A DNA stretch of 64,000 nucleotides from assembly GCA_951406725.2 (NCBI GenBank), contig OX597821.1, positions 186,001-250,000 of the forward strand, given 5' to 3'. Source of the DNA: Octopus vulgaris. Taxonomy: Eukaryota. Numbering within the stretch: the stretch's first letter is position 1; each line of letters begins with the position of its first letter. Shown piece after piece: positions 13,827 to 43,046 of the stretch. The notes under the pieces are model-generated. The model did no database searches. It was not told the DNA's origin and worked only from the letters and a program-made list of their open reading frames with translations. Position numbers and translations under genes: made by a program.

Positions 13827-13960
13827 TTTTGATTTGAAAACCCCACTAGAATGGAAGAAAGCGCTAATGATCTAAGTGATATGATATATATATAAAAAAT
13901 GTAATATATAAATAAATATCTGTAAATATAAACCATCCGATCTTCTGATTACCTCATTTC

Positions 13961-14013
<53 letters not shown>

Positions 14014-14146
14014 TTTGATTTGAAAACCCCACTAGAATGGGAGAAAGCGCTAATGATCTAAATGATATGATATATATGTAAAAAATGTAATATATAAATA
14101 AAGATCTGTAAATATAAACCATCCGATCTTCTGATTACCTCATTTC

Positions 14147-14195
<49 letters not shown>
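13827..14195 (+). repeat. Tandem duplication (period 186 bp), each unit with a hammerhead-like motif and a (TA)n tail
   Basis: Near-identical units start at about 13827 and 14013. Each reads TTGAAAA-CCCCA..TGG(G/A)A-GAAA-GCGC-TA. Confidence 0.8.
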
Positions 14196-14208
<13 letters not shown>

Positions 14209-15462
14209 TGTGTACTTTATCTTTATGTCCACTTTTTAATTTTTTTATCCTTTTCTATTTTTATTTTTCGGCTTCATTTTTTCGCTTCTTTATCTTTATT
14301 TGTATTTCCTTGCTATTTTTCACTTCTACACTACCACAATACAGCTCCAGAACTTTAGACCCCCCCCACACACACACACGCGTACACGTAGGACATCCTT
14401 TGTATCTTTATATACTTTTTTTTACATCTTTACCCTTTTATTACATTTTGCACTTACTATTATCCTGTATAATCAGGTTTAGATTTATACATATACTTCT
14501 TCCTCTTTGTGATCCCAACTTCATTAAAGATTCACCCCCTTCCACTTCTTCCCTCTTTACCTCAACATCCAACCTCCTCATTCTTTATCAAGTGAAAAAA
14601 CGGTATGGACGTTTTGGTGTCTCGCTATGCCATATACAGCTGTGAAGATTTGCATTCCCAACGAAACTCTTTTTCCCAAACTTCTTCTCAAACCTGCTAT
14701 AATGTAATACATGTCTTTGGTGTGGTAATTGTACACGGCTGAAGAAGGCTATTGACATACATGTTACATCAATTATGCATTGATATAAATTGTCCAATAA
14801 AGCCAGAAACATATGTACTGCTAAATCCTTTGCATCCTGTTTTTCTTTTGATAAATATATATATATATATATACATATATGTAGTTCTTTTTGGCGCTGT
14901 TTACTACCCTAATTAACATCACCCATTTCAACCACATGTCCATGTGACTGTCTTTCCTCTTTCTATCTCCATTTATTACCCATGTCTGTTTTGCTGTCTT
15001 TTCAATGCCTGTGACTTATACACTCTTCACTAATGACCTCTGCTGTTATTTATTTCAGGGTATCTGGTGAGACGACAGACTGAAGACTAAAGAATGACAT
15101 GATCAAGGATATAAGGATCTTGTTTATGTAACTTCACTTCTATCAATATGAATTATTTCTTGTTAATTGCAGTTTACTCCATTATGACTGACTCTGTATA
15201 ACTTTTTACACTCTTCCTGTGATGGTGTCACAGCAAAGTTTACTGAGACGTTCCTCTTTCTTACATTTATCTATTTATGGCTTGGCCGTAACGGAATTAT
15301 TTCTGAATTCAAGACTGAATTACAAGAAAAATATTTTTGTCTTTCAGCTGAGACATAATCAAGTTTTGAAGAAAATAGCATTTTTGAAAATTTTTAGTAG
15401 AAATATATCTCTTGAAAATTACAGAGGAAACGTAGTTTTCTATTTTATGAAGATTCAACAGT

Positions 15463-17235
15463 ATGGAAGAGAAACTTAGTGAAAGTCAGATACATAAGGA
15501 AAAAACACCTGATAGTAATGATGTCTCTCATCAAACAGGAAAGATATACAGGTGTGATGTCTGTGGAAAGTCATTTAAAATAAGAAAATATTTCACTCAA
15601 CATAAATTGATGCATACAGATTCAAAATTGTTTGGCTGTGATATATGTGGTAAAAAATTCTCTTCGAATGAATATTTATCTAACCATAAACATCTTCATA
15701 CAGGTCTGAAACCATACAACTGTAGTATTTGTGGCAAAGTATTCTCACGAAATAGGGATTTATTGACACACAAACGTATTCACACAGGTGAGAAGCCATT
15801 CCATTGTGATATTTGTGGTAAAACCTTCACTGTAAATGGTTCTTTATCTGTACACAAACGTATTCACACAGGAGAAAAACCATACCACTGTGATATCTGT
15901 GGTAAAAGCTTCTCTGCAAGTAGTTCGGTAACAACACACAAGCTTATTCACACGGGTGAGAAACCCTATCACTGTGATCTTTGTGGGAAAGCATTCTCTG
16001 TAAATAGTAGCTTATCTAAACACAAGCGCTTTCACACAGGAGAGAAGCCATATCACTGTGATATCTGTGGTATGACGTTCTCTCAGAGTTCTAATTTAAT
16101 GGCCCATAAACGTATTCATACAGGAGAAAAACCGTATCACTGTGATATTTGTGGTAAAAAGTTCTCTACTAATGAATATCTATCAAACCACAAATATATT
16201 CACACAGGGGAAAAACGATACCATTGCGATATTTGTGGTAAAGCATTCTCCCAAAGAGGTAATTTGCTTTCCCATAAACCTCTTCATTCAGGAGAGAAAC
16301 CCTACCAGTGTGATATATGTGGTAAACATTTCTCTACAAATCAGTATTTATCTAACCACAAGCGTATCCATACAGGATTGAAGCCGTGCCCCTGCGACAT
16401 TTGTGGTAAAGCTTTCTCTCGAAACAGTCATTTGAATGAACACAAACGCATTCACACAGGTGAGAAACCATTCCATTGTGATGTTTGTGGTAAATCGTTC
16501 ACTATAAATGGTCATTTAACTAAACACAAACGTATTCACACAGGAGAGAAACCATATCAATGTGGCGTCTGTGGCCGGATGTTCACCGATAGTTCTACTT
16601 TACTCACTCATAGACGAATCCACACAGGAGAAAAACCGTATCACTGTGATATTTGTGGCAAATCTTTCTCTGCCAATGATTCTTTATCCAAACACAAACG
16701 TATTCACACGGGAGAAAAACCATATCGTTGTAATATCTGTGGAAAAGCATTTTCTGAAAGTAGTTCTGTATCAACACATAAACGTATTCACACTGGTGAG
16801 AGGCCATATCACTGTGATATCTGTGGAAAAACATTCACTGCTAGTAATTCATTATCTACACACCGAAGTATTCACACAGGAGAGAAACCATATGAATGTG
16901 ATATATGTAGTAAAGCTTTCTCACGCACTTGTAACTTATTGCGACATCGGCGTCTTCACACAGGAGAGAAACCATATCACTGTGATTTCTGTGATAAAAC
17001 ATTCACTTCTAGTACTGACTTAAACACACACATACGCATTCATACAGGAGAGAAACCATACAACTGTGATATCTGTGGTAAATCATTCTCTCGAAGTGGT
17101 CATTTGTTGAACCATAAACGCATTCACACAGGTGACAAACCTTATCACTGTGATGTATGTGGTAAGGCATTCTCTCAACAAGGTCATCTTCTAGCCCACA
17201 AATGTTTACACAAAAGAGTAACTACTCCTCTATGA
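15463..17235 (+). CDS. Tandem C2H2 zinc-finger protein (20 fingers, 590 aa, no effector domain in this exon)
   Basis: Intact ORF of 20 Cx2Cx12Hx3H repeats with TGEKP-type linkers. A splice acceptor TTTCAG lies at 15053-15058 and AATAAA at 17729-17734. Confidence 0.95.
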
Positions 17236-17330
17236 CATTTGTTAATGTTAATCAGTTAACTTGGTATAAACAAATATGTTTGTAGACTCTCTTACCACCC
17301 TCCTCCTCCTCCTTTCTTAACTGGGCTTGG

Positions 17331-18240
17331 GACCAGCTAGGGCAGAGTTCCTTCAAAAGTTATTCTTAAGATAACCATCTTCGACCCCATCATCAACACA
17401 CTTCAACCCCTCCCCCCCACACAATTTGTCTTGTCTTTCTGTCTTTCCTACACTCACCTCTGCTCTTAAGATTTGGCTGGTTTCAGTTGAACTCCACTCA
17501 GGCCCAGGCCTTCCTCACTCACACGCCTCTCCTCTCATCACTCATATTGTTTAGCCATCCTCAACGGCCACACTCAACACTTCATCCCTAGAATGACAAG
17601 AGACTTCATTAAAACTTATGAAATATCATCACTGGATATTATTTACATAGTAGTTTTTTTTTTATATCACTGTTGTTTAATGTTGTTGAAATTGTTTTGA
17701 ATATTTTAGTTTTGTTATGTGAAATGAAAATAAAAACCTGGCTATAATTGCTACCTCTATAAAGTTGTTGTTGTGTTGCCCCAAGTCAGCACTTAAAAAA
17801 AAAATTTTTTTGTCTCGTCTAGAGGAAAGGATTGTATTCATGGCTTCTACGGGACCCTGAGACCAACGAAGTTGACACTTAATGTTCTGCTTGAATTGTT
17901 AAAAGAATTGATAATGTGGGGAGGTAACTCAAGACAGACAACATTCTGAAAAGGAAGGAGTTTGCATAATGTTTAGTGTGTTGTCCGGTGTGCAAAGTGG
18001 TTGCGTTATGAGAATCAAGAGTATGAGTGAGTTGGGAGGTTTGGAGTGTAGATGGCATCAGACAAGTCAGCTCTGAAGACCAGCTAGGGTAGCGTTCCTT
18101 TAAAAGTTATTCTCAAGATGATTAAATCATAAGATTACAGACATCTTCGACCCCATCACCAACACACTCCAACCTCTTCCTCACACATAATTTGTCTTTT
18201 TTGTCTTTCCTACACTCACCTCTGCTCTTAAGATTTGGCC
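17331..18240 (+). repeat. Dispersed direct repeat of about 150-165 bp (17331-17478 and 18078-18240)
   Basis: GACCAGCTAGGG...CTACACTCACCTCTGCTCTTAAGATTTGGC occurs twice. Confidence 0.75.
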
Positions 18241-18650
18241 GATGAGCAGAAAGCACAGTAGCAGCAGTTGAAGAGGCAGAAAGAGGAGACAGGATATCTG
18301 AAGGCCAGAAGTTGGGTGGTGTTCATGAGCAGTTGCATGCCAGTCTGTCAGGTAACTTTGGAAACTGTTGAGGATATCTATGTGTTGTGTGTGTAGTAGC
18401 AGTCCTGTCCCAGTAGTACTTCTTCATTGTGGCTGAGGCTTTGTACAACATCAGTAATTGGGGTGAGCTTCTAAAGTATTTCCTGGCTCTGAAGAGATGG
18501 ATCACTCTTAGTTATGTTGAAGATGTGTGTTCACCAGCAGAGATCCTCAATGATGATGAAGCCCATCATTAGTATTACTCATGATGGTTCTGGTTGTGTG
18601 TTGTACATGTTTGGTGAGGTGACTGTTTTCTTGATAAACACAATTTCATT
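18240..18650 (-). pseudogene. Degenerate LINE RT C-terminal fragment
   Basis: LFRARKYFRSSPQLLMLYKA resembles the post-RT region of CR1/L2/Jockey-group LINEs. Confidence 0.4.
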
Positions 18651-18939
18651 ATCATTGCTTTAATGCCTGCTTGTCATTGCTTACCAGGAACGGCTTGAAT
18701 TTATTAAAGCAAATTTTCTGTGGTCAGATGCTCTTCTTGTTGCCAACTCTCACTTGTTTCCATGCAAGATAATATTTTCCCATGGCTGGGCATATTTTTG
18801 GAGCACATTGGGAATGAATGACAGTTGCACTCATTTACAACTATCACACAATGTCAAGGCAAGTAGAAGGAGATACAAACATACACATATACATATGTAT
18901 ATGTGCTTGTATGTATGCATTTATACCCTTTCACCCTTT

Positions 18940-19130
18940 TTACTTGTTTCAGTCATTTGACTGTGGCCATGCTGGAGCATCACCTTTAGTCGAGCAAATT
19001 GACCCCAGGACTTATTCTCTGTAAGCCTAGTACTTATTCTATAGGTCTCTTTTGCCAAACCACTAAGTTATGGGGATGTAAACACACCACCATCGGTTGT
19101 CAAGCGATGTTGGGGCGGACAAACACATAA

Positions 19131-19171
<41 letters not shown>

Positions 19172-19338
19172 CACGACGGGCTTCTTTCAGTTTCCGTCTA
19201 CCACATCCACTCACAAGGCTTTGGTCAGCCCGAGGCTATAGTAGAAGACACTTGCCCAAGGTGCTACACAGTGGGAATGAACCTGAAACCATGTGGTTGG
19301 TAAGTAAGCTACTTACCACACAGCCACTCCTGTGCCTA
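18940..19338 (-). mobile_element. SINE family A, full length
   Basis: Complete head, internal (TA/CA)n and tail. Confidence 0.85.
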
Positions 19339-20654
19339 TATGCACACAATTCTTTCAGCATCTACCATATCCTCTCAAATACGTGGGTTGACCAGAACTA
19401 TAGTAGATGATACTTGCCCAAAAGTTGGTTGGCTTGGGACTGTAGTAGATGACACCTGCCCAAAACTTTGTGGTTGGTAAGTAACTTTCTTAACCACAGC
19501 CACACCTGCAGTGGTTGTATTTTCTCTCTTTTGAAGGTGACACAATCAGTTTCAAGACCTCGTTATGGTGCAAGAGCATGACATGAGGTGTCGAGGTTGC
19601 ATGTGGATTACACTTTTAGTAGAGGGTTAGGGAAGAGTTAGGGGCCATGCCGTGTGTATGTGTAGGAATGGGCATTGTTGAGTTAGTGGCATGTAGATCA
19701 TTTGATGTATAGGAGTTGATATTATGGATCAGAGAGTGTTTTATTTGTCAATACAGTGTAGTATGACCTGACCTGAAACTACTGATATGTAAAATGGTCG
19801 AAGCCCATAAACAAGCAGAGATTTGTGTGCCAGACATAGTCAAAATTTTTACTAATGTCAGTCTATTCATTGCTACTTCCAAAACTTCAAGGGTGAGTGA
19901 TGTAGGTGGTGGTGGGAGAGAGTAGGCCTCTAGTAGATTGGCCTTTTATTTTGAAAGCCATACTGATAGACATTAAAGACAGTGAGAGAGAGAGAGTCAA
20001 GGTGTTGGAGAAAATTGTTAATGGTTGAAATATAAGAAGGATAGTAAGGCCAGAGGAGTTAACTTTTTGGAAATGAGACACTGAAGCATGTTTCCAAAGA
20101 TTGAAATATATTTCTGTGATTGAAGAGTGGTGAGGATAAGAGCCAACTCTGGGATGTATTTGTTTGATGCTAATATCTCTTAACCCTTTCAATTTGTATA
20201 ACAGAACTCTCTATTACAAAGATGTTGATTGTAGAAAGGCAAACAAATGCCATAGGAACTACAAAAAATACAATGAGTGAACAATGATTGGTAATTATGA
20301 TTCTGAACAAAAAGTTTATGCTTATAATTTGAAAGTTTAAGAGTAAAATCTTTTTTACTGTTAGCTTAAGTTGCTGGTTGTCATTTTTTGTGCTGCCAAT
20401 AAATAAGTAAATAGCATTATTTTTTCCCCTTTTATGTATTAAAGCATCAGTATTATATATCCATCTATAATATATAGAATATAGATTGTATAGTCTATAT
20501 GTGTTATTTTACATATATATTTGTTTTGACAGGGTTAACAAAATATAAATGAAAAAAAAAAAGTTTACTAAAGTAAGGATTTTATTTACTTTCACTTTTT
20601 TGTTTTCACCTACATTGTAATATCAACAGAAAGGGTAAGATATTTTTTTCCAAA

Positions 20655-20792
20655 AGGATTGCTTACCAACCACATGGTTCTGGGTTCATTCCCACTGCGT
20701 GACACCTTGGGCAAGTGTCTTCTACTATAGCCCCGGGCCGACCAAAGCCTTGTGAGTGGATTTGGTAGACGGAAGCTCAAAGAAGCCTGTCG

Positions 20793-20824
<32 letters not shown>

Positions 20825-21020
20825 TGTGTGTCTGTGTTTGTCCCCCCAACATCGCTTGACAACCGATGGTGGTTTGTTTACGTCCCTGTAACTTAGCGGT
20901 TCGGCAAAAGAGACTGATAAAATAAGTACTAGGCTGCCAAAGAATAAGTACTGTGGTTGAGTTGCTCGACTAAAGGTGGTGCTCCTGCATGGCCACAGTT
21001 AAATGACTGAAACAAAAGAG
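20655..21020 (+). mobile_element. SINE family A
   Basis: High similarity to the other copies; absent from the paralogous segment at about 23590. Confidence 0.85.
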
Positions 21021-21466
21021 AAAAAACCCTATTTAATACGTTATTGATATTCTGATTTGGATACTGGCAACAAATTGATTAGAGGCTACTTTAAACCCCA
21101 CTCCTCTGTTTCCATATTTTCTTGTCTTCAACTGTCCAATACAATCATGAATCCCTGTCAATCTCACTTGTCACGGTGTGGTGTCTACAAAAGATAAAAA
21201 AATAGTCCCTTTGTTAAGGCCAAATGTTAAACAGCCACACACAAAACAAATGATTGGGGCAGTTTGGAATAGCTGTCATTATAGGAATGAAAAGGGCAAG
21301 GAATTGTGTAGTATTTCTCTGCTTAATTGTTAGTACTTTTGTGAATTATGAATCTGAAAAAAAAAAAAATCCTCCTGAAATCTAATTTTTTTATTTTACA
21401 TTTCTGTTCATCCTTTCCCTTTTCGCAATATTCCAAAATTCTACTAGGATTAATTTAACCTAACAG

Positions 21467-21810
21467 CCAACCACATGGTTCCAGGTTCAGTCCCACTGCG
21501 TGGTACCTTGGGCAAGTGTCTTCTACTATAGCCTCGGGCCGACCAAAGCCTTGTGAGTGGATTTGGTTGACGGAAACAGAAAGAAGCCCGACGTATATAT
21601 GTATATATAAATGTATGTGTGTGTATATGTTTATGTGTCTGTCCCCCCAACATCGCTTGACAACCGATGCTGGTGTGTTTACGTCCCCGTAACTTAGCGG
21701 TTCGACAAAAGAGACCACTTACAAAGAACAAGTCCTGGATTTGACTTGCTCGACTAAAAGGCGGTGCTGCAGCATGGCCACAGTCAGAATGACAAACAAG
21801 TAAAAGAGTC
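21467..21810 (+). mobile_element. SINE family A
   Basis: High similarity to the other copies. Confidence 0.85.
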
Positions 21811-22814
21811 ATTAGTTTATATATTAAATTTTAAGGGAAAGAACTAGGTAAAGAATTATTAAAGCGACATAACTCTTGGAGATATCCGCTGAAATTATAA
21901 TTCTTGATGTTATATCAATTCGAGCTGGCTTTGGCAGAACAGATTGAAGTGTCGAAATACCGCCTCTCCCAAATTTCCCTTATGCTGTTAAAAGAAGTGC
22001 GTCATCAACACACATTCGTCTGGAAGTAGTTGTTCTCCATTAGCATATTTACGTTCTTCTTTGCTGGACCGTATTAAGGATAAATTTACCGTTTCAGATA
22101 AGTTTTAAGTTCCTATAAATTTTCAAACCATTTTCACTGTTTTAGATCTCTTTTTCATATTTTGTTTTACTTTTAAGGACTTTAAATTCAGTCACTCCCT
22201 GCACTTGGGACTTTTTCAATTGTATTTCAGATGTTTTATTAAATGCAGTTGCTATCGTAACAGCGGGCAGTAAATGACACGCTGCAAAAAATAACAAAAT
22301 TGGTCCGTAACTCAATACAAATGAAGAAATAACGTAAAACTAGAACCTTGTTGGTTAACATAAGACCACGTCTGGTTCAGTAGACTTACGTTTATGCTTT
22401 TAAGCCACGAAACAATCCGTCTTCAGTCACTACATAATTTAAGATGTCAAGATTGATTTGAGGAAGAATTTGATGCTAATTTTAGTCGGTGGAACGGCCG
22501 CTCAAAACTTTTCTGCATTTTAGAGCAGTATCAAACGTCCCACAGACATTGTTTGGCTTTCGGGTCAAGATGTACCATCACTGAAGATAAGATGCTGGGT
22601 AGTATCACTGAATGTAAAACTACGTGATAAAGAAGCGAACTTTTTGTTATTAGCTTTATTTTTAGTAGTATTGTTTGTATTCTTGATTAATTTTTTAATA
22701 AATGATTTGAAGTAATTTTTAGTATTAATTTTTGTTTTATACGTATCTTTACTCAAATAGATGGTTGTAGAATACAGATCCTATACTTGTAATTTTAACT
22801 GTATATATTCGTTT

Positions 22815-24421: not shown

Positions 24422-24923
24422 TTACAACCTTCGAACAGGGGAGGTCAGCCGCTTCACCTTGCTGGTCAGACATCTGCAGACATGTTTGGCGATAACTATT
24501 AATATCCAGTAACGCTGCCGTAATCTCCTTTAGAGAGACATAGTAATTTTAATATTTCTATTATTGAAAACAAGTGGATGTATTCCACTGAAACTAGGTA
24601 AATAAAATCTTCGAACAGACGGTCGGTAGCAACACCTGCTGGGTCTGACTACGCAGCATTGATAAAGGGCAACAACCTTGAAACATGCCTGCAGATGTCT
24701 GACCAGCAAGGTGAAGCGGCTGACCTCCCCTGTTCGAAGGTTGTAATGGACGCAGGTTCGTGTGTCATATAGCTAGCTAGAGGCGATGGTCTCTTGGAGC
24801 TAATCAACGACAGCTTTAGTCTTATATTTATGGACTGCCATATTAGTTTGGCGATAACTATTAATATCCAGTAACGCTGCCGTAATCTCCTTTAGAGAGA
24901 CTTAGTAATTTTAATATTTCTAT
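24422..24923 (+). mobile_element. Non-coding retrozyme-like or Penelope-terminus element
   Basis: Direct repeats at 24484-24561 and 24846-24923 (period 362), inverted repeats at 24422-24487 and 24681-24746, and a hammerhead-like motif at 24656-24692. Confidence 0.65.
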
Positions 24924-26879: not shown

Positions 26880-29800
26880 ACTGCTTATTTTATTGTGTTT
26901 TTGACAAAGTTTCGTTTTAATTTTTGCACACGGAGTGTGTAAGACACCCAGCTTTCGTCTGGGTGTGTTTTCCGGAGGGGATTTTGCCCCTAGGGGCATT
27001 TTCAGCCTCGAATATATATCAAAATTTTTGCTGCAATAACTTGTTTTTTCACACAATGTCGGCGAAGCGTTTCTCATAACATACAAACGCTGTTCTCTCT
27101 CTCTCTCTCGTTTGCATCTATTCTTTACGTTCTACATTGTCGGAGTTTTTCAACTTTTCAAACACCCAACTTTCGTTTGAGTCTTTTTTAGATAAAGAAT
27201 TCGCCCATAGGGGCATTTTCATCAATTTATTTTTCTTTTTCTTGGAAAAAAAAATAACGTCGAGAAATCTTATCGCAGAAAAATATTCTACGAAGATTTC
27301 CCTGTTTTGGAAAATACAGTCAACAAGGACGCTGAAAGAAAGAAAGATAAAACTGAAATCAACACCACCACCAACATAAATGATAGAACTAAAACTGACA
27401 CAAAGACCATTAACAACAACAAGAATAACAACAACAAAAATGAAATAAATATTATCACACCCAATAGTGAAGATAATATTAACATAACAGAAGAAACAGT
27501 ACATGAAAAAGCTAAAACCAAGAATAATTCTGATACAACAACAACAAAAACACACAACGACAACAACTGCCAGAATAGAACTGTGAATTTCGCTGACACC
27601 CTGCGTCAGAAAAAGAAATTATACAGTTCACAAATGAAGAGTTGATAGAGACAAGATCACTCTTCACAACCTCAAGGCAAGATTTAATATTACATACACC
27701 ACAACATATTAAAGAAGAAATAGAAAAAAAAAACAATTATATATAGAATTATTAGAAAAAACAAAAAAACAAAACGGAAGTAGAGAAATGCGTGATAAAA
27801 ATAATGAAAATAAAAGAGTACATAAACTGGGGTCCCCAGTTTAATACTGGTGGTTCGCTTCCCTAACCAGGAAGTGGCAAAAGCTCACTCTACGGAGACT
27901 TTGCAAAATGATGAAATCATCATGATACCATATTACAAAGGACAAAGAGTGAGCAAAATTAGAATAAAAAATGTCCCGACAGAAATACCACCCAAATGGA
28001 TAACATCGGCGATATGTTATCATTTGAAATCGATAAACATTTTGGAAATCGCCGTGTTCAAAAATGATAATTGGGGTGGTAAATCAATAGAGGTAACCAT
28101 TCAGATCGATGGGTCCTCTATCGAGAACCTACCAAATATTCATTTGGAAAATGGGCAAAGCTTATATGTGGTAGCAGAAGGGGAAAAAAACAAGATGCTG
28201 TGGCGGTCCAGAACACTTAATTGCGAAGTGCGTTCTGGGACAGAAAAAACAAATCAGAAAACAAATAAAAAAACCTTTGCTACCAACACCACCACACCCA
28301 ATTATGGAACAATGCCAAGAAAAACAACAAACCAGCAAACAAACCCCAACATCATCACGAAAAGAAACAGCACCAACACAATTACCGTTGACGTCGCAAC
28401 CAATTAAAGATGCGAAACCAAAACCAACACCAAAAGACAGACCAACACCAGCACCAAGGACGACAACTAAGAAAACAGAAAACAGTGACGAGAAGACAAA
28501 TTCTACCCCTAACACCACAACAACACAAACACCGCACAAAACAGCAACAATTTCTACAAACATACATATTAACGCAAATGCTTTGCCTTTACCCCCTTCT
28601 GATTCGTCAGACTCTTCGTCCAACGACGAAAGTTCGATGGAATGGCCACAGGGGGTAAAAGGAAAAGATAAAAAAAGCCCACCAAACAAGTAAGTAAAGC
28701 AGGAAGATATTTAACTCCGGACAGCACCCCCTTAGACAATCAAAACATCAATGACCCCGCAAAACCACACACACAACTAACAGCAATAGACACGGACAAT
28801 AAAAAACTAATGGAATACATTGCTTTCAACACGAACATCTGTGAAGATGACTTTAAAATAAATAATCATCCGCGCACTACACCACCGAAACACATAAGAA
28901 TTGTACACATAACACAAACACAACACCACACAGTGAAAACCATATTTCCAAATGCGGTAGGGGGGGGGGGTTCAAAAATATTTATTAAAGAAACTATACA
29001 AACACCTCCTCAAAGACATTTCAAAAGAAGAAAAAAACTGAAACTTTCGAAATGAGTAAGTGACCTTCCCTCTTGCCTCTTGTCTCTCTCAATGTAGTGT
29101 GTGAAACACAAATTTCTTAAACATCAGTTATGCTTAAATTAGGTTGTGTGAATGCGCGTGGCTTGGCGTCGGCTTGGAAGCAAGGTTACCTTCTAAAAGA
29201 CATCAAGTCACTGAACGTGGATATAGTAGCTCTCAGTGAAACCAAACTCAGCAAGCCGCGGGCCCTCGCGTCCATGTTTGGCGATCAATTCGACATTTAT
29301 TTTTCTCCCTGTCTGCCGAACATGGGTGGTGAAGGTACCGTTGTGCTTTTTCAAAAGAGTCTAAATGTAAAAGTAAGAACAATATTCCTAGACCCGGATG
29401 TTAGGCTGGTTGTCTTGGACGTGGATGACAGAAATGGGTGTGCATTCCGTCTGATGGCAGTTTATGCACCGTCCTTAACGGGTCGGGCGGATTTCTTCAG
29501 ACGTCTTGAGGTTTTCCTGGGTACGTCTAGACCTTTACTGTTAGTAGGGGATTGGAACGCTACCTTGGACACGCATCTAGACTATGTGGGAAAGGATAGG
29601 AATAGAAGGGGGTGTAAGTGCCTCAAAGACCTACTCAGACGTTTCCATTTGTCTGACAGGTTCCGACTTGACCGTCCGAACGTGCCAACGTGGACTTGGA
29701 CAAACTGCGTCGGATCGTCGAGATCTTATCTAGATAGAATTCTATGCAGGACAGCGGATAGGGATAGTGTAGGATGTCCACAATTTAAAATAGTCAGCTA

Positions 29801-32305
29801 CACAGATCACAAATTTGTGACATGTACGCTCGACTTAGATAAGACACATAGACAGGGTCCCGGTTACTGGAAACTGAACACGTCGCTCTTAGCGCGACAG
29901 GTTTACAGGAACCGGATTAGCGAGTTAATTAAGAGGGCGTTGGCAGGAGCCGTCGTTAACAACCGCTGGTGGTTCGCCCTGAAAATGGCAATAAAATCGG
30001 AATCAATTAGGTTTAGCAAGGAATTAGCGATAGATCGAAATAGAGTAGAGGGAGACCTGGTTAAAAAACTAGAAGAGACACTTTCTATTGGCAACGCAAC
30101 CAACGTGCTGGCTGCGAGGATGGCCCTCGACCAACACCTCAACGCCAAACACGAAGGTTGCGTCGTCAGAGCTAAAATGCGTGCCTTAAGGAACGAAGGG
30201 ATTGAAGCTGCGCGAGAGGCCCGGGTAGCGGAGGCGCAACGTAGCAACAGAGCCACCATTCGGTCTCTAATAGATCAACAGGGATGCAGTTTACTCGAAC
30301 CCGAAAGGATGTGTGAGGCCTTTCAACAGCACTTTGCTCGACTGTTTGGTGCGAGTGGTGAGTCGGAACGCGGAATGGATTTCAGTGCCTACCTGACCGA
30401 CCTGCCGCGGCTCTCGGCAAAAGAAGCGGAGTGTTGTGAAAGTCCCATCACAGCCGCTGACGTGCGGGATGCGATGGCGGGCTGCGCGAGGGATAAGTCA
30501 CCTGGATTGAATGGTTTACCCTACGAGCTGTATTGTCAAATGCCAGACTTGTTTGGCGACCTCTTGGCATCAGTCTACTGCATCTGGCAACAAAACGGGA
30601 GAATCCCTGGTTTCGTGAGCCGAGGTGCAGTGACGTTGCTGAAGAAAGACCCAAACAAGGGGAATTTTATAGATAATTTCAGGCCCATCACTCTGCTCAA
30701 TGCAGATTTGAAAATTTTGACCAAAGTAATAGCCGAGAGGTTGGCGCTTGTCATTGGTAAACTGGTCGACACGGCGCAAACATGCGTCGTGCCGGGCAGA
30801 ACCATACATGACAACCTCCATCTGATTCGCTACATTGTGGATAGGGTAGTTAAGGATCCTGGCATGGGTGGGTCACTGACCAATTTGGATCAGTCTAAAG
30901 CCTTCGATAGGGTCGAACATCGGTACTTGGCGGCTGGCTTCGGTTCCGTCTTCCGCGGTTGGATCGCTGCCTTATATAGCGGCATCCGGTCGGTGATTCG
31001 GGTGAACGGTCACCTGTCGAAACCGTTTGACATCACGCGTTCGGTCCGTCAGGGGTGTCCCCCGTCGGCGCTTCTGTATGTATTGACTCTCGAGCCGCTA
31101 CTGCGGAAGCTGGCGACACTGAGGGGCATCCCACGGGAACTGGGTTGCGGGACGAGCGTGTTGGCATATGCGGACGATGTCACCGTCATAGTGTCGAGCG
31201 AAAAACACATCCAGATGATAGGCGAGACACTAAAAAAATACGAAACGGTGACGGGAGCGAAAATTAACCCGGAAAAGTCAGTGGGTTTGCAACTCGGCAC
31301 CTGGAGAAGCAAGCCCATGCCGTCCGACTGCGGCTCAGTAGTGGGACGCTGGACGGACGGACCGGTTAAATTGCTCGGGGTCTGGTTCAGTCCGGACCTC
31401 CAAATGGATAAGAACTGGGACGAGATCACGAGTAGAGTGGTCGCTCTCAGCCAAACATGGGCCGAGAGAAAGCTGTCTCTAAAAGGCCGGGCGGAGGTGG
31501 CGAACGCGTACATCGCATCCGTCATCGATTACCGCCTGACCGTCGTGCCTTGTCCCGACGCCACCATCACCAAACTGGAACGGATATTCTTCCGCTTCCT
31601 GTGGCGTTCCGATGGTGAAGAAGTCCATTTGCTGTCAACATCCGTTAAATGGAGGACTGGGCATGCCGTGGTTGATGATGCGCAGGCATGCGCTGAGACT
31701 TCGACATCTCTGGAACTTCATCGATGACAGTGAACAGGTGTGGGCGCCGTTTGTGAGGCGTGCCTTCCCGCAGCTCGTCTCACTGACCGAACTGCAAACG
31801 TGGATCAAGAAGAGACCGAAACTGGGCGATTGGCACCGAGAGTATCGCCAAGCTCTACAGCAGCTCTGCCGACCGGGATCAAGCTTGTGCAACTTACAAA
31901 CGACTAAAGCGTTCTATAGAGGACTAGTGGAGGGGAGCTCCGACGACACACTCGGGGAAAACCTGGGCGTCGACGAGAAATTCCTAACCCGCCTTTTCAG
32001 GACGATGTTCGGGCCGGGGCCTATGGATAACTTCCAGAGATCCCTGGCTTGGCAATGCTATCGAGACGCACTACCTGTTCGAGAGAAGAGCTGCAGGCAC
32101 GGTTCGAAAACCATCACTGGATCGACCTGCCCGAGATGCAGTCAGAGCGACGAAACCGTTCTGCACGCACTCGTGCAGTGTCCAGATATTTCAGAGCTGT
32201 GGACCTTCGTCGAACAGCTGTTGTCGCGTGTAGGACGGGCCCGCTTATCGGCCGAGTCTATCGTGAATATTGTTCCACCACCTTCCTTTAAACGGGAAGG
32301 GAAAA
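26880..32305 (+). mobile_element. Tx1/L1-clade non-LTR retrotransposon (ORF1 fragmented, 3' end truncated)
   Basis: Broken ORF1-like frames at about 27300-29055, followed by an APE-RT-zinc knuckle ORF2. Confidence 0.85.
29130..32305 (+). pseudogene. ORF2: AP endonuclease, RT and CCHC knuckle, with a frameshift near 31610
   Basis: Motifs NARGL, LSET, GDWN, SYLDRI, YTDH, KSPG, FRPITLLN, AFDRV, RQGCP, YADD and CPRC...H...C. Confidence 0.92.
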
Positions 32306-32419
32306 CGGAAGTACCACTTGAAAAGGAGGATGAGAATAGAGAGGAAGGCTTTGTCGAACGAATCACACGAACTCACATAAAGAATCTTGCAAACCAAATC
32401 CAAAAATGAAAGCATCAAT

Positions 32420-32795: not shown

Positions 32796-32799
32796 ATAT

Positions 32800-32935
32800 A
32801 TATACACGACGGACTTTCAGTTTGTCTACCAAATCCACTCACAAGGCTTTGATCGGTCCGAGGGTATAGTAGAAGACGCTTGCTCAAAGTGCCACACAGT
32901 GGGACTGAACCTGGAACCATGTGCTTGGTAAGCAA
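32800..32935 (-). mobile_element. SINE family A head
   Basis: Matches the 5' part of family A. Confidence 0.8.
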
Positions 32936-34194: not shown

Positions 34195-34963
34195 CAGGGA
34201 CATATATTTCAGGTGTGCTGCACACCCACCGAAAATGGCAAATTCATTATAAATATTAACCTTACTTATTAATTTAATCACAAATCTTAATGGAAAACTT
34301 TTGTTATATGTCTGCTTGAAATTTGGTGGCATTTTATTATACACCTGCTTGAAAATTGGTGGTGTTATATGTCTGCTTGAAATTTGGTGGCATTTTGTTA
34401 TACTCCTACTTTGAATTTGGTGGCATTTTGGGCAAGACTTCTGCCCGTCCCCACCAAACCATTCTTTTTTAAAACTTTTTTCGACACAATCCCCACCCCT
34501 TTCGGCTACGGAGAATACGAATCTGCAAAAAAATTGGCAAAAATCGACATTTCTAAATTACCACTCCACTCCCATTTCCTTCATTTTAAACTTTTTTTCA
34601 CATAATTTTTTCAAAATATACTGAAAAATACAGACATCATGATTCAGACAAAAATTTCAAAACATTTCTGTACTTAGGGTTAGGGTTGCAGAAAAAAAGT
34701 CAACATTGAAGAAGTTGCGGGTTAGGGTTAGGTTCACAATGCCGATATTTGGCAATTTTCCGGAACCTCCATATCTGAAAATGGAGATTTTTGTCAAAAA
34801 AATTTTTTTAAATATACAAATTTGGGAGAAAATGGTGGGGGATGGGCAGAAGTGTTTCTGCATTTTGTTTTACCCCTGCTTGAAATTTGGTGGTGTCATA
34901 CCCCTGCTAGAAATTTTGTTTTGGTTGCAGCAGCACACCCAATGCAACTACTATACACCACTG
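34195..34963. mobile_element. hAT-like non-autonomous element with a nested TIR element at 34431-34859
   Basis: CAG...CTG ends with an 8-bp TSD GTGACTAT/GTGACTAC. The nested element has TIRs ACTTCTGCCC(G/A)TCCCC and flanking GCATTTTG repeats. Confidence 0.6.
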
Positions 34964-34971
34964 GTGACTAC

Positions 34972-35106
34972 CAGTTGTGTAGCCAGAGGGTTTGCTGCTT
35001 AGAGCAGCCCTTGAGTTTTCCACCCATCTAGGCTTATACAAGCTTATACAGCATACCCAAACGTTTTGCTCAGGGTGGACTGCTACACTGCCTAGCTATG
35101 CTACTG
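34972..35106. mobile_element. Small hAT-like MITE
   Basis: Imperfect TIRs CAGTTGTGTAGC / GCTATGCTACTG, flanked by GTGACTAC and GTGTCTAT. Confidence 0.5.
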
Positions 35107-36374
35107 GTGTCTATAGTATCTTAGACATTAGGGTGTGATTTGTAGAAGATTTGGGTAGTATATTTTGTAGGAAGAATGGTCACCAAGAATTTTTCTGGAT
35201 GGATTTGGTTTTAGAGCAGCTTCAAAGATCTTTTGAACATTATTTTTAGTTACAAATAGTTTTACATATTCTAAGTTATTGGGGTTTAGGATTGAATATG
35301 TATGATAGTTGTTGAGTGATGTAGAACAATTATTATAGTTTCTAGGTGAGGTGCAAGGCCTAAAATATTTTGTAGGGAGTTAATCAGTGCCATTGACTCC
35401 AGTATATGACTGGTACTTTATTTTCTCAACACTGAAAGGTAAAGTTGACCTCAATGGGATTTTAACTTGGAATGTAATGAGACAGTACAGATAAACCAAT
35501 GTTTTCTGTCTGCTGTTAACAATTCTGTTAATCCTCCATCCTCTGGAACAATTTTAATAAATATAATTTGTTTCCAAACTGAGACTTTTGGTGATTTGTT
35601 GCATTTGGGAAGACACATCAAACTATGTAAAATTGTAGTCATGGCCAGTGCAGGTGACACACAAAAGGCACCTCTGTGTGTCACACATAAAAAGGTACCC
35701 ATGCTGGTGACATGTAAAAGGCACCTGTGATGATGACACTCAAGACACTGAGTACACTTGATGGAATGATTGGTATTAGGGAGGGTATCCAGCTGTAGAA
35801 ATGAAACCAAAACACATTGGAGCCTGCTGCACTTCTGTGGCTAAACCAGTTCCAGTCAAACCATCTAATCTGTCAGAAAAAAAACATATACATAATTATG
35901 CATATATAAACACACATATATAAACGTACTTCTGTACACATAAACACACATAAATATCTGCCCGCTTATATAAACGCATATGCACATATAAAACCATAGG
36001 TGCATATTAACATACATATGCATCCATACACATATAAATACATATATGCACACATGCATGCATACCTGTATACATAAATGCATACATGCATATACATACA
36101 TACACACATATACATACATGCATGCACATACATATACGTACACGTACATACATATACATATCTACACACATACGCAAACCCATACAAAAATCTACGAGTC
36201 CATATATATACATACATATATATACACACATACATATATATACACATATACACATACACCCATACAAAAATCTACAAGTCCATATATATATACATACATA
36301 CATATACATATATACACATATATACATACATACACATACGTACTTACACCCATACACAAATATATATATACATA

Positions 36375-36620
36375 TGATTGATTGATTGATTGATTCTAGT
36401 TTCAGCTTATGAGCTGTGGCCATGCTGGGGCACCGCCATTTGGTGTTGCTACTTGGTTTCACTTCATGGAGGCTTTCTAGCAACTGCTATTTGGTGCATG
36501 AGAGAGTTCGATGCAGCTGCCCTCATCTGCCCCTCCTGCCGTGAAGTTGGTTCATCTGGGACACCTGACAGGAAGAGATCCAGCTCCATTTTAAAGACAT
36601 CTGTATCCACCCCATGCATA
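36375..36620 (-). mobile_element. 3' end of the CR1/L2-like LINE family seen at 62277-63340
   Basis: Close reverse-complement match to 63095-63340, including the (TCAA)n tail. Confidence 0.85.
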
Positions 36621-36800
36621 TACATATACATACATAAATAAGTATATGCATATATAAATACACATACGCATATCTACACACATACACACACACTCACTCA
36701 CACACACGCACACACACACACCTATATATACACATATAAAAGTCTACAAGTCCATACACTTACACACATACATATATATATATTTTATTTTATAGAAGGA

Positions 36801-36849
36801 GCTTCTACAGGACTAGAACTGTTTCATTCAAAAGAAATCATCAGGAAGC
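36801..36849 (-). ncRNA. Type I hammerhead ribozyme
   Basis: GCTTC-CTGATGA-TTTCTTTTGAAT-GAAA-CAG(TTCTAGTC)CTG-TA-GAAGC. Confidence 0.8.
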
Positions 36850-37776
36850 AATTAGACAAGAGTTGTTTTGGTATTTATACATTTAGGCAGGTTTAAATGG
36901 GTGGTGGTGGGGGACTTTTTTGGGGGTAGGCATGGCGCAAAACTGTCATTATTAGGGGAGTGGTCAAAGGAATCGGTGGTAAAGTAGATAAAAGAATAAA
37001 AAATAAAAATAAAAATAAAAATAAAAATTAAAATTAAAAAAATATAAATAGAAAAGTTTTAGGTAAGTGGGGAGACTCTCACTTGTGCATCTACATATAT
37101 ATATATATACATACACATATACACACCCGCCTATTCACATATATCTATACATATACATACATACCCACATATACATACATATATATATATACATACATAC
37201 GTACACATACATATATATATATACATATATCTACACATACTCATGTACGTACACACAGATACACAAACACATACACATACATACACATATGTATACCCAC
37301 TCGCACATATATATACAAATGCATATACATGCACGCACATACACACACATTTTTATTCTCTTATTTTAATTTTATTAACTACTTTAGTTTATATCTTTAT
37401 TTTTATCTTGACCGGTCAAACTTGTCCCAAGGGATCTCTAAAGATACTGTTTTTCTATCAACTTACGCAAGCACTTACTCACGCCCACACATTCACACGT
37501 ACACTCACGCACAAGTTATATTCATACACGCCTACATCTACATACATTCACGTATATTCACATACACGCATACACATACATACCTCAACACACCCACAGA
37601 AGACTAGTCCATACATATACACTAATTAATATATATACACATATACATGTACACATACATACACATACATACATATACATACACATATACACATATATAT
37701 ACATATATATACACATATACATTCATATACATATACATACATATATACACTCATACATATATACACATGCACACAT

Positions 37777-37825
<49 letters not shown>

Positions 37826-38025
37826 TATATATATATATATATATCACGGGAAGCTTTATGAAAATATATATATATATATATATATATACACCTAAGTACA
37901 TACATGCATAAATGTATACATATGTCTAACACATGCATACACATCCGCACACACACGCGCCTCCTTATGTTCATAAATACATACATGCATACTGGCATAT
38001 ACATATATACATACATGCATACTCA

Positions 38026-38069
<44 letters not shown>

Positions 38070-38252
38070 TAATATATACGTGCAGTTACCCATTATTCAA
38101 ACGGATACCTACATATACACATACCCATATATACCTATTTACACATATGTATATATAAATATTCATACATACACATATAACTACATACCTACATATACAT
38201 AAACACACAAGCGTACACATATCTATCTATCTATATATATATATATATATAT

Positions 38253-38580
38253 GCGCATGGCTCAGTGGTTAGAGCGTCGAGCTTACGATCGTGAGGTTGT
38301 GAGCTCGAATCCCGGACCGGGCTGCGTGTTGTGTTCTTGAGCAAGGCACTTTATTTCACGTTGCTCCAGTTCACTCAACTGTAGAAATGAGTTGCGACGT
38401 CACTGGTGCCAAGCTGTATCGGCCTTTGTCTTTCCCTTGGATAACACTGGTGGTGTGGAGAGGGGAGGCCGGTATGCATGGGCGACTGCTGGCCTTCCAT
38501 AAACAACCTTGCCCGGACTTGTGTCTAGGAGGGTAACTTTCTAGGTGCAATCCCATGGTCATTCATGACCGAAGGAGGTC
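38253..38580 (+). mobile_element. tRNA-derived SINE family B, full length
   Basis: A box TGGCTCAGTGGTTAGAGC and B-box-like GAGCTCGAATCCC, with several copies in the window. Confidence 0.88.
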
Positions 38581-38713
38581 AAAAAAAATATATATATATA
38601 CATATATACATATACACATACATATCTATACACATATATATACGCATATACATACACATACACATATATACACATCCACATACACATACACACATACACA
38701 TATACACACACAT

Positions 38714-38770
<57 letters not shown>

Positions 38771-38823
38771 CACACGCATTTTTACACATATATATATATA
38801 CACACATACACATACACACACAT

Positions 38824-38855
<32 letters not shown>

Positions 38856-39216
38856 ATATATATACATATATACATATGTGCACATATACACATACATATA
38901 TATACATATATACACATACATACACACAAGCACCTACATGCATAAATGTATACATATGCTTATACAAATGCATACACATACACACACTCACGCGCCTCCT
39001 TATATACATAAATACATACATGCATACAAACGCATACTCGTGTAATAAATAATGAATAATAAATAATAGATATATATACACATGCAATTACACTCTGCAC
39101 AGACGGAAACATACATAGAGGCATACACGTATATACCCATCTACACATATGTATATATACATACATACACATACACACAACTCTACATACTTACATATAC
39201 ATAAACACACGAGCAT

Positions 39217-39267
<51 letters not shown>

Positions 39268-39424
39268 CATACACATACACATACATACATATATACACAC
39301 ATACACACATACATACACACATACATACACATATATACATACACATACATACATACACACACATACACATACATACACATATACATACATATACATATAT
39401 ACATACATACATACATACATATAC

Positions 39425-39463
<39 letters not shown>

Positions 39464-40117
39464 AACATATAAAATATAAAAAACCACACACATACGCACA
39501 TACCCATGTACATACATATACACATACATTAACATATACACGCACTCACATACATGCGTATATTCCTACTAACACCTATTCATTTCTATACATATATACA
39601 TTACATATATACAGGTGTACATATACAATCTGTGAGTAGTCTTAGGAGGAAAGTTAATCGGGAGTGCTGGGGGAACGGTGGGGTTGGGCGGTTTTTGTGG
39701 GTGGGGTGTCGTCAATCGGGTTGCCGGGTGGGTCTATAGTTCTTGTAGTTTGCATAAATTTTATGCATGCAATTTAGGGAGTGTTCTGAGATCTTGTTGA
39801 GGAGATGGCCTTTGGCGAACGAGATCTCGAGGCTCTCAGAAATGCAAAGGTCACAGCAGGTATGACCTCCTGTGTACGAACGCGCCTTCTGTAGTTGTCT
39901 CCACTTGGTCTTGAAGGGGATGGAGTTCCTTTTAAGGTACCAGATGTGGGCGGCGAGGGTAGTTTGGTTGGATTTATCCGGTCGCCGGAACGAGTGTGTG
40001 TGGGCGTACCAGCGGGTCTTGAAGCTGTTTGACGTCATTCCGATGTACGATTTATATATATATATATATACACATACACACATACATACATACATACACC
40101 TATACACAAGTATACAA

Positions 40118-40186
<69 letters not shown>

Positions 40187-40278
40187 TTAATCCAAACGGG
40201 AAAACAGAAAAAACAACAACACGTGGAACAATTACAGTATTATTATTATTAGGCGCTCAGGAAAATGGAAGAAGGAGG

Positions 40279-40313
40279 GTATGACGTTTCGAGCGGAGCT
40301 CTTCATCGGAAAC
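40279..40313 (-). ncRNA. Minimal hammerhead-like motif (CCGATGA core) in a short repeat at 40185-40390
   Basis: GTTT-CCGATGA-A-GAGC(TCC)GCTC-GAAA-CG-TC-ATAC. Confidence 0.5.
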
Positions 40314-40384
40314 ATAGGAGAAAGAAAGATCCCGAGACGGGAGGACAGAGGAAAAAAAATTGCAGGTAGTCTTCACGAGGTCAC

Positions 40385-40460
<76 letters not shown>

Positions 40461-40488
40461 AAGGGTGAAAAGGAACACACGAGTTGAT

Positions 40489-43046
40489 ATATATGAAAAA
40501 ACAAGTAAAAAATAGAAAATGCTAAAATAATTTTATAGTGAACATTTCAGTACCGGTTTCGGTCATTTTGAGACCTTTTCAACTGTAACGATTAAATAAT
40601 TAAATTTAGAAAAATTAGAAGAAAAGTTTTTTTAAAAGAATATTTCTATAGTAGTGTTCAGATTTAAGTGGCATTCTGCCTTTCTCTGACTCCCTTGTTT
40701 GCACTTGTGTGTTCGAGGTAGTTGTGAGTTCTTGGTAGGGTAGTAGAGGGAAGGCTGGTGAGGAAAGGGGGTGGGAGAATCTGGGAGTGCCCTGATGGTC
40801 GTATTTTGAATGGTCAGTGGCGGCTGGCAGTCTCAGTTCAATTCAGGATTGTTTATAGAATTAGCGTAGGTGTTATACTAAAAAACATTAGTGACAAACT
40901 TAAGGGGTAGGGGGTGGAGAAGAAGAAGAAGAAGAAGAAGAAGAAGAAGAAGGAGAAGGAGAAGATGATGGTGATGGTGGTGATGATTATGACGACGATG
41001 ATGATGATAACGATGATGATGAAGAAGAAGAAGAAGAAGAAGAAGAAGAAGGAGGAGAAGGAGAAGATGGTGGTGATGATGGTGGTGATGATGATGACGC
41101 CGATGATGATGATAACGATGATGATGAAGAAGAAGAAGAAGAAGAAGAAGAAGAAGAAGAAGAAGAAGAAGGAGGAGAAGGAGAAGATGGTGGTGATGAT
41201 GGTGGTGATGATGATGACGCCGATGATGATGATAACGATGATGATGAAGAAGAAGAAGAAGAAAAAAACAGAGAAGGGAGAATATGAATGGGTGTAAATA
41301 TAGCTATGAAGGGGCTGATTAGTAATGGATTCTATGGAGTGTAGTATTTGTGTGTGTATATATATTTTTTTCTTTTATTCGGAACTATCCACCTTCACTT
41401 ATTGACAAGTGCATTCAACGTGCCCTTCAACTTAACATCAAGGAACTGAGACATCCCAAATCAAAGAAAAACTTACAACCAAAAGCCTTACCATACATCT
41501 CCACACACAACCCTCTCAATAACGAAGCCTTCGACACCATCCTCCACAACATACCCCTCCTAAAAAAAGACCACAGAATGAACACAATCCTCCAAACACA
41601 CACGATCATAAAAAGCAAAAGACAGCCTAGATCCATGAAAAGTCTCCTTACACAAGCCCGAATTCACTCTTCAACACAGAAGCCGACAGTAAAAAAATGT
41701 GGAAGACCCAATTGCGGGATATGCGACTATCTAATCGAGGGTTCTGAGTTCTCCTTCAAACAGGGACAACGGTTTACAGTGAAAAGCAACTTCACATGTG
41801 CTTCGGAGAACCTAATATACTCACTAACCTGCTCCGGGTGTCAAGAGCAGTACATAGGCCAAACAAAAAATGGTTTGCGTAAACGAATGGCCCTGCACAG
41901 ATCCCAGATAAAAATTCCCCAAAACAGAAAAATAGCTTTTAGCCAACACATAGATACTTGCGCCAACAAAAAAACACCAAACTTCAGAATTTCCCCCTCT
42001 ACCAATTTAGGGACGATACAACCTCGAGACAAAGAATAAGTAAAGAAAATCTCTTTATTACAAAATACAAGCCACTTCTTAACGGGTCTACGACAAACAA
42101 TTAATATACCTCAACTTTAGAATAAAAGAAAAAAATATATATACACACACAAATACTACACTCCATAGAATCCATTACTAATCAGCCCCTTCATAGCTAT
42201 ATTTACACCCATTCATATTCTCCCTTCTCTGTTTTTTTTCTTCTTCTTCTTCATCATCATCGTTATCATCATCATCGGTGTCATCATCATCACCACCATC
42301 ATCACCACCATCTTCTCCTTCTCCTCCTTCTTCTTCTTCTTCTTCTTCTTCTTCTTCTTCTTCTTCTTCTTCTTCTTCTTCTTCTTCTTCTTCTTCTTCT
42401 TCATCATCATCATTATCATCATCATCGGCGTCATCATCATCACCACCATCATCACCACCATCTTCTCCTTCTCCTCCTTCTTCTTCTTCTTCTTCTTCTT
42501 CTTCTTCTTCTTCTTCATCATCATCGTTATCATCATCATCGTCGTCATAATCATCACCACCATCACCATCATCTTCTCCTTCTCCTTCTTCTTCTTCTTC
42601 TTCTTCTTCTTCTTCTTCTTCTCCACCCCCTACCCCTTAAGTTTGTCACTAATGTTTTTTAGTATAACACCTACGCTAATTCTATAAACAATCCTGAATT
42701 GAACTGAGACTGCCAGCCGCCACTGACCATTCAAAATACGACCATCAGGGCACTCCCAGATTCTCCCACCCCCTTTCCTCACCAGCCTTCCCTCTACTAC
42801 CCTACCAAGAACTCACAACTACCTCGAACACACAAGTGCAAACAAGGGAGTCAGAGAAAGGCAGAATGCCACTTAAATCTGAACACTACTATAGAAATAT
42901 TCTTTTAAAAAAACTTTTCTTCTAATTTTTCTAAATTTAATTATTTAATCGTTACAGTTGAAAAGGTCTCAAAATGACCGAAACCGGTACTGAAATGTTC
43001 ACTATAAAATTATTTTAGCATTTTCTATTTTTTACTTGTTTTTTCA

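Follow-up and report, generated by a model that had tools for sequence, protein, structure and literature searches.

Hammerhead motifs in the window

The window analysed here is a 64,000-nt stretch of the Octopus vulgaris genome (GenBank assembly GCA_951406725.2, contig OX597821.1, positions 186,001 to 250,000 of the forward strand; positions below count from its first letter). It contains five putative hammerhead ribozymes with U3-A8 in place of C3-G8 in the core, distributed among three repeat families: two, A and C, of Penelope-like elements (PLEs), and a third, B, with a 360-nt tandem unit. The evidence taken together makes it quite probable that minimal type I hammerheads of this kind are fixed in the Neptune-type PLE families A and C and in family B, and that the family C motif, predicted to dimerise through its palindrome, likely cuts its RNA at GUA in vivo.

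The core heptamers are in the places given by a preliminary description of this DNA: TTGAAAA at 13834 and 14020 (family A), and at 42958 and, on the minus strand, 40582 (family C); and TTGATAA at 24659 (family B). Each of the five cores has a GAAA and a 4-nt palindrome (GCGC, CCGG or CATG) on its 3′ side. The same description gave all five a stem II; the region is present at each, but the helix is broken in the 13834 copy, which has GGAA where family A has GGGA. This is why a descriptor requiring a 4-bp stem II misses that copy. Four sites in the window are recovered with the descriptor, whereas 200 locally shuffled windows gave no match.

The two family A motifs lie in one tandem insertion (13693-14191, plus strand), comprising the 3′ end of the terminal repeat of a Neptune-type PLE and, in tandem with it, a second unit of 186 bp. 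The insertion ends in (AT)n and was delimited by Tandem Repeats Finder (period 186) and by blastn to other family A loci (L141, L148, L035). Copy 1 (13832-13868), with the broken stem II, has its core at 13834-13840, GAAA at 13857-13860, GCGC, and a predicted cut after 13866. Copy 2 (14018-14054) has its core at 14020-14026, GAAA at 14043-14046, GCGC, and a predicted cut after 14052; its sequence is of the family type, stem I has 2 bp, and the basal position of stem II is a C.A mismatch.

The family B insertion (24422-24923, plus strand; blastn of the monomer against the window) is made up of an inverted 5′ piece (24422-24478) and about 1.2 monomers of a 359-363-nt unit, ending in (AT)n. Its hammerhead (24654-24694; core 24659-24665, stem II 24666-24679, then GAAA and CATG) has C for U16.1 at 24688, giving GCC rather than the family's GUC, plus one change in stem I and one in stem II.

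Family C is represented by a single inverted PLE insertion. A terminal repeat on the minus strand (40487-41259; a 773-nt inverted repeat, 90% identity), attributed to 5′ inversion of the insertion, carries the mirror hammerhead (40548-40585, core 40582-40576). On the plus strand are the 3′ part of a reverse transcriptase (RT)/GIY-YIG frame (41380-42101) and the 3′ terminal repeat (42102-43053), which ends in (AT)n and contains the second hammerhead (42955-42992). This has a CAG/CUG stem I, core at 42958-42964, a GGUC/GACC stem II, GAAA at 42980-42983, and CCGG; its predicted cut is between 42989 and 42990, and other genomic copies have junctions at the same position (below).

Since 13834/14020 belong to one tandem and 40582/42958 to one inverted insertion, the window records three insertion events; and with stem II broken at 13834 and U16.1 missing at 24659, two of its five copies have decayed.

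Further hammerheads occur in the window outside these families. A canonical C3-G8 type I motif with a real stem III lies at 45410-45465 (plus strand, core 45416-45422), in an inverted piece adjoining a different PLE frame (43926-45170, minus strand). Another repeat (51291-51420) has an inverted pair of canonical cores (51319, minus strand; 51379, plus strand), both changed after the GAAA.

The carrier elements

At a family C locus elsewhere in the genome (L097), a 784-aa frame with RVT_1 and GIY-YIG domains lies between family C motifs, with the linker CGRPNCGIC (CX4CXXC) preceding GIY-YIG. The frame between the window's inverted repeats is a 5′-truncated, frameshifted remnant of the same kind, retaining a CX4CXXC linker and a weak Pfam GIY-YIG match; it is 95-97% identical to residues 544-784 of that protein. 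The family A motif is found 0.9-1.6 kb downstream of a GIY-YIG frame in five loci (L034, L036, L141, L148, L150), and tblastn recovers family A RT/GIY-YIG frames in L098, L139, L140, and L148. These are 38-52% identical to the family C frame (47% protein identity over shared columns). Both families thus have the organisation of endonuclease-containing (EN+) PLEs: a single frame with RT and C-terminal GIY-YIG, and tandem or inverted terminal repeats with a tail.

We take A and C to be of the Neptune type, a label based on motif rather than on an RT tree with named references. Both have a CX2-5CXXC linker before GIY-YIG and end at (AT)n, consistent with a (TA)n target bias; the source genome, of 2.8 Gb, is rich in AT microsatellites. 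It is this combination of linker and (AT)n targets for which they are called Neptune-type (PMC8557442). The linker is also described in Nematis elements in that paper.

Family B is of a different kind. Its 10 tandem units of 359-363 nt have no frame longer than 57 aa, and its predicted circular folds are unusually stable (z from -3.8 to -7.6 for six monomers on both strands). Non-LTR retrozymes are recognised by tandem units of about 170-400 nt that do not code for protein and contain a single type I hammerhead, an organisation that family B shows. Insertions show 5′ inversions, and in 20 of 30 the end falls at position 176 or 235 of the monomer, almost always beside an AT-rich repeat. In these respects family B behaves as a passenger of A/C-type PLEs, and the likeliest reading is that of a retrozyme with a Neptune-type enzyme as its putative carrier. 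A point against this is that nothing in its sequence connects it with the terminal repeat of an identified PLE.

Fixation of the U3-A8 core

Genome-wide patterns for each family that accepted any base at positions 3, 7, and 8 had 1,953 matches for family C, 842 for A, and 255 for B. These numbers are limited to copies agreeing with the remaining, fixed positions of the pattern; the reversed-pattern controls gave none for any of the three. U3 is present in 1947 of 1953, 838 of 842, and 253 of 255 copies, respectively, and A8 in 99 of 100 among the matches listed for each family. A single C3-G8 copy was found among the 1,953 family C matches, too few to argue for a canonical subfamily. The family consensuses are therefore fixed for U3-A8, and are not CUGANGA sequences with scattered single mutations; they pass the check suggested in the preliminary description.

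Stems and palindromes vary between families, with pairing retained, and all three have the expected core (U4 G5 A6 N7 N8 A9 / G12 A13 A14) with a Watson-Crick 3-8 pair, here U-A. They also have the A15.1-U16.1 pair and an NUH cut site, GUA in C, CUA in A, and GUC in B; the window's family B copy, with GCC, lacks it. Stems I and II are of 3 and 4 bp in family C and 5 and 4 bp in family B. In family A, stem I is only 2 bp long and the basal position of stem II is a C.A mismatch in nearly all copies, so that this motif may be weakened. An alternative register for family A, with GAT pairing with a downstream ATC, was ruled out, since the AGCGCU palindrome would be lost and position 17 would be G in some subfamilies. 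Co-folding predicts that two copies pair through the palindrome in each family, with ACCGGU (C), AGCGCU (A), and ACAUGU (B) as the stem III sequences. The five window sites, two of them decayed copies, are confirmed as minimal type I hammerhead motifs of three repeat families.

That standard searches would miss such motifs holds for Rfam. None of its hammerhead families (clan CL00010) reached the gathering threshold in A, B, or C; the only match was of family C to HH9 (19.7 bits, cut-off 52), and A and B had no hammerhead match at all. A scan of the whole window gave only low-complexity microRNA-type matches among the 150 of 371 matches listed. Descriptors fixed on CUGANGA would miss at least 5,000 motifs in this genome (summed pattern counts for A, B, C, and the sister families I and J described below), and statements that a PLE lacks a hammerhead therefore need to be re-checked with descriptors that leave the 3-8 pair open.

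Junctions at the predicted cut

If the motif cuts RNA, occasional genomic copies might preserve the cut end. For family C, copies were collected in which the base 12 nt upstream of the predicted cut departs from the family (178 matches, of which 100 were listed and 50 loci examined in full; the counts that follow refer to the matches listed). Most proved to be point mutants or internal deletions. Truncations, inversions, and foreign junctions, with inverted pairs counted once, fell exactly at the cut in 11 cases, at -1 or -2 in 5, and over -3 to -11 in 9. A recognisable RNA partner was present in 7 of the 11 events at the cut and in none of those from -1 to -11.

The partners are themselves informative. 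Two are U6 3′ ends (L342 and L350, the latter matching Rfam U6 with 67.1 bits). Others are 5′ parts of different hammerheads that end at their own GUC: L346, a pair of copies sharing the same 12 bases, and L353. The last two (L355, L359) we take, from the appearance of their sequence, to be tRNA-like short interspersed nuclear elements (SINEs). A separate search for U6 3′ ends, not constrained to family C, gave 215 matches (100 listed, 50 loci examined in full); 5 of the 100 listed adjoin family C-type sequence, in every case at that same nucleotide. Among the partners examined in those 50 loci, U6 was joined nowhere else in the element.

The same search brought up other U6 arrangements. In L451, L456, L457, and L459, U6 3′ ends are joined to short AT-rich tails with (AT)n ends, some as inverted pairs; these tails are probably the post-cut ends of other PLE families. 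Most dispersed U6 copies (e.g., L363, L365-L370) have SINE-like repeats within a few bases on the 3′ side, a separate route to chimeras. L371-L377, at 139.42 Mb, are seven U6 copies arranged in tandem at intervals of about 1.1-1.4 kb, probably the U6 gene cluster.

With junctions peaking at the predicted GUA cut, and 7 of 11 of them involving recognisable RNAs, the family C motif likely cuts its RNA at this site in vivo. A peak could in principle arise in other ways: from a transcription start, a host nuclease site, or an RT stalled at the stem, with the foreign sequence then acquired by template switching rather than ligation, in which case it would say nothing about self-cleavage. Template switching is an accepted route to chimeras (PMC11838501), and near the palindrome, at -7, there is also a cluster of fold-back and (AT)n junctions. 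Against such an origin, the peak occupies exactly the one nucleotide that hammerhead chemistry predicts, the partners stop at a GUC hammerhead site of their own or at the 3′ terminus of U6, and template switching would still need an RNA ending at the cut base; we regard it as improbable.

Several observations weigh against cleavage in family C or against extending it to the other families. Three of four U6-search loci (L386, L460, L461) carry a diverged family C-like tail (81-88%) in which a core of its own was not seen. The boundary test is one-sided, blind to junctions on the 3′ side of the cut; the analyst sorted the events into classes, by script for the 50 loci and by eye for the other rows listed; and the case for cutting is read from junctions in genomic DNA. 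No foreign-RNA junction was seen in family A (44 matches), B (24 matches), I (30 loci of 303), or J (3 matches). Family A has no clear peak, though several of its junctions fall within 2 nt of the cut site, which is itself AT-like; family B has no clear peak and one unexplained junction at the cut; neither I, where the list is diluted by a long-tail subfamily and A-run indels, nor J has a clear peak. Fold z-scores of the monomers are unremarkable (-1.2 to +0.2). Finally, in C, A, and I a pair between U3 and A17 can form, and it is present in the predicted fold of C. A C3-G17 pair is reported to be inhibitory (PMC3884650), and the analogous U3-A17 may mean that motifs of the family C type are tuned down.

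The odds are somewhat against the reading in which the motifs of A, B, or I have ceased to cut or cut too weakly to matter, and persist as a structural signal (for dimerisation or template jumping) or by hitch-hiking in a master copy. The missing junctions would fit this, as would the short stem I and mismatched stem II of family A, the A13C change that marks family I (below), and the weak in vitro cleavage of the PLE minimal hammerheads that have been tested (PMC4209133). On the other hand, core, stem II, and palindrome are constant across diverged family A subfamilies (among copies selected by the motif), mismatches at the stem II base are also found in C3-G8 relatives, and family B has a 5-bp stem I, a 4-bp stem II, and a GUC site. 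Since A and B have far fewer copies than C, few junction events would be expected for them. The earlier suggestion of selection for activity therefore finds support in the family C junctions, and no evidence of activity was found for A or B. For family C itself, the U3-A8 hammerhead is real, fixed, and probably functional.

Sister families and the origin of U3-A8

A search with GIY-YIG brought up sister families in the same genome. Family F has UUGAUAA in 22 of 22 aligned copies from 21 loci, with flanks that divide into subfamilies; it shares UUGAUAA plus CAUG with family B. Family I (1,804 genomic matches, e.g., L178:4496) combines U3-A8 with A13C, C13 being present in 96 of 100 among the matches listed. 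Family J (189 matches, e.g., L176:5267) has A3-U8 in 99 of 100 among the matches listed, with a stem II of 2-3 bp, a GUC site, and a predicted competing hairpin. Family K has U3-A8 in 5 of 5 copies, and family G has C3-G8. U3-A8 is thus the rule in 5 of the 7 Neptune-type families with an assigned core.

Among 124 PLE loci from other hosts there were 34 hammerhead-like matches (reversed control, 1): 28 C-G, 2 U-A, 1 A-U, 1 G-C, and 2 non-pairing antisense. A hammerhead was found in 8 close relatives, and in every one of them the pair is C3-G8. Single PLE loci on metagenome contigs (L286:117, L279:1969, L248:2216, L303:2650) carry G3-C8, A3-U8, and U3-A8 cores, so that all four Watson-Crick 3-8 pairs occur near PLE frames.

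Two other observations concern these foreign loci. Animal-type PLE sequences in bacterial assemblies (L189-L232; symbiont and metagenome-assembled genome contigs) are probably host contamination. In a foreign C3-G8 PLE (L235:169), one terminal-repeat copy reads GCAA where its partner reads GAAA.

In the host-family tree, A is sister to G, and C, I, F, J, and H form another clade. The tree used for testing had 18 rows (L190, L236, L237, and L246, in which no hammerhead was detected, were left out); in it, 7 of the 8 close C3-G8 relatives group with the C clade, away from A (support 92/92), and five changes of the 3-8 state are needed. From this tree, separate origins of U3-A8 in A and C are moderately favoured. 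The alternative, to which we give a smaller but substantial share of belief, is that the change occurred once, in a Neptune-type ancestor within the lineage of this host, from which A, C, F, I, and K (and B) received it, with G reverting to C-G and J flipping to A-U. It would account directly for the shared core of those five families and for the common UUGAUAA and CAUG of B and F; two changes suffice on a host-only tree; and, as a point against separate origins, a single clade of all seven host families is not rejected (approximately unbiased test, p-AU 0.054). It has to contend with the C3-G8 relatives that join C, F, I, and J to the exclusion of A, with the occurrence of U-A in distant PLEs (L248, L303) and in schistosomes, and with the rejection of a clade of only the non-C-G host families (p-AU 0.031, for a group named after the tree had been seen). 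If the single origin were correct, the three families of the window would not be independent evidence. The description of these families as three independent, unrelated ones stands in part, then: the tree favours separate origins, but A and C are both Neptune-type PLEs and B behaves as their passenger.

A further possibility is that the pair is not under selection and that AT-biased mutation produced U3-A8, with a U3.G8 wobble as the intermediate. Each of the two changes is a GC-to-AT transition, the AT content of the terminal repeats is high, and single U3-G8 copies exist (1 of 100 among the matches listed in C, and likewise in B). Yet the G+C content of the 120 nt upstream is alike for U-A or A-U motifs (0.23-0.41) and C-G motifs (0.25-0.42), and local AT content, which does not separate the core types, was rejected as the cause. 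A3-U8 and G3-C8 would moreover require transversions, and no well-formed family is fixed for a 3-8 mismatch. This origin seems very unlikely.

A possible mechanism

In the scheme that we propose, two motifs would pair through ACCGGU, AGCGCU, or ACAUGU to form stem III, and cleavage of the dimer would leave a 2′,3′-cyclic phosphate and a 5′-OH. An RtcB-type ligase would normally rejoin or circularise the element RNA, which would explain why ordinary copies span the cut. Occasionally it might join the 5′-OH end to U6, to the 5′ product of another hammerhead, or to a SINE RNA, and the PLE enzyme could then copy the ligated product into (AT)n targets. RtcB is reported to join cyclic-phosphate U6 to 5′-OH RNA (PMC6789731) and to circularise retrozyme monomers (PMC7229834), which makes it a likely route to the junctions. 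The 3-8 pair is probably kept by selection for pairing rather than for base identity, and has probably switched more than once among PLEs (C-G, U-A, A-U, and, in one locus, G-C).

Extended further, and here we are speculating, one animal PLE clade may amount to a natural mutagenesis series of the hammerhead core (C3-G8, U3-A8, A3-U8, and U3-A8 with A13C) with all members active in vivo as dimers. An RtcB-type ligase would seal the cut ends, PLEs would retrotranspose from religated or circular RNA, and mis-ligations to U6, SINE RNA, or products of other ribozymes would form a nucleotide-exact record of cleavage in the genome. The scheme as a whole is more doubtful than cleavage in family C.

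Other features of the window

The remainder of the window contains further mobile elements: an LTR-type (long terminal repeat) pol with RT, RNase H, and integrase at 1473-4688; an endonuclease-RT long interspersed nuclear element (LINE) at 29121-32409; an RT frame with a PHD-like finger at 46761-49172; and an RT fragment at 62053-63249. An exon encoding an array of about 20 C2H2 zinc fingers lies at 15451-17235 (plus strand).

Comparison with known systems

That U3-A8 is a known, tolerated variant, as the preliminary description also stated, is on record for natural hammerheads and for those of PLEs. Several natural hammerheads have C3-G8 replaced by U3-A8, and such pairs are cited as active in vitro (Perreault et al., 2011, PMC3088659); the relevant section of that paper names neither A3-U8 nor A13C and describes no high-copy animal retroelement context. 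Minimal hammerheads of the Cercyon PLE of Schistosoma mansoni include a U3-A8 variant, with about 1,300 schistosome matches (Cervera and de la Pena, 2014, PMC4209133). These resemble the motifs described here in their terminal-repeat position, short stem I, and palindromic stem III, and the motifs listed in that paper, UUGAUAAA and UUGAAAAA, have the same core words, UUGAAAA and UUGAUAA. Differences here are that U3-A8 is the rule in 5 of 7 families, that the palindrome is of 4 nt, that sister families have A3-U8 or A13C, and that genomic junctions fall at the cut.

The function of PLE hammerheads is called unclear in PMC8557442, and PMC4209133 states that in vivo evidence was absent and in vitro activity weak, so their role is still open. 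Junctions at the cut predicted for a U3-A8 core offer a readout of cleavage from the genome alone that can be applied family by family, and they point to ligation as a step in PLE retrotransposition. What is new here is the set of foreign-RNA junctions at the predicted cut, together with the natural core series; U3-A8 itself was already published. Our literature search found no paper on A3-U8 hammerheads or A13C PLE families (Lunse et al., 2017, lay outside the search), and none, judging by title or the start of the abstract, on U6 at PLE ribozyme cuts.

Family B shares with metazoan non-LTR retrozymes (PMC7229834; Li et al., 2026, 10.64898/2026.07.22.740005) a structured, non-coding tandem unit of 360 nt and one type I hammerhead per unit; a PLE origin has been proposed for these as well. 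It differs in its U3-A8 core (a term absent from the main text of PMC7229834) and in its insertions, which are dispersed, show 5′ inversions, and have two fixed 3′ ends at (AT)n.

The nearest parallel to the junctions is the chimeras of U6 and LINE-1 attributed to RtcB (Moldovan et al., 2019, PMC6789731), in which, as here, the U6 3′ end with its U tract is joined to retroelement RNA and retrotransposed. In the octopus, however, the element is a PLE, the 5′ products of other hammerheads are among the partners, and the junction is not variable but fixed at the ribozyme cut.

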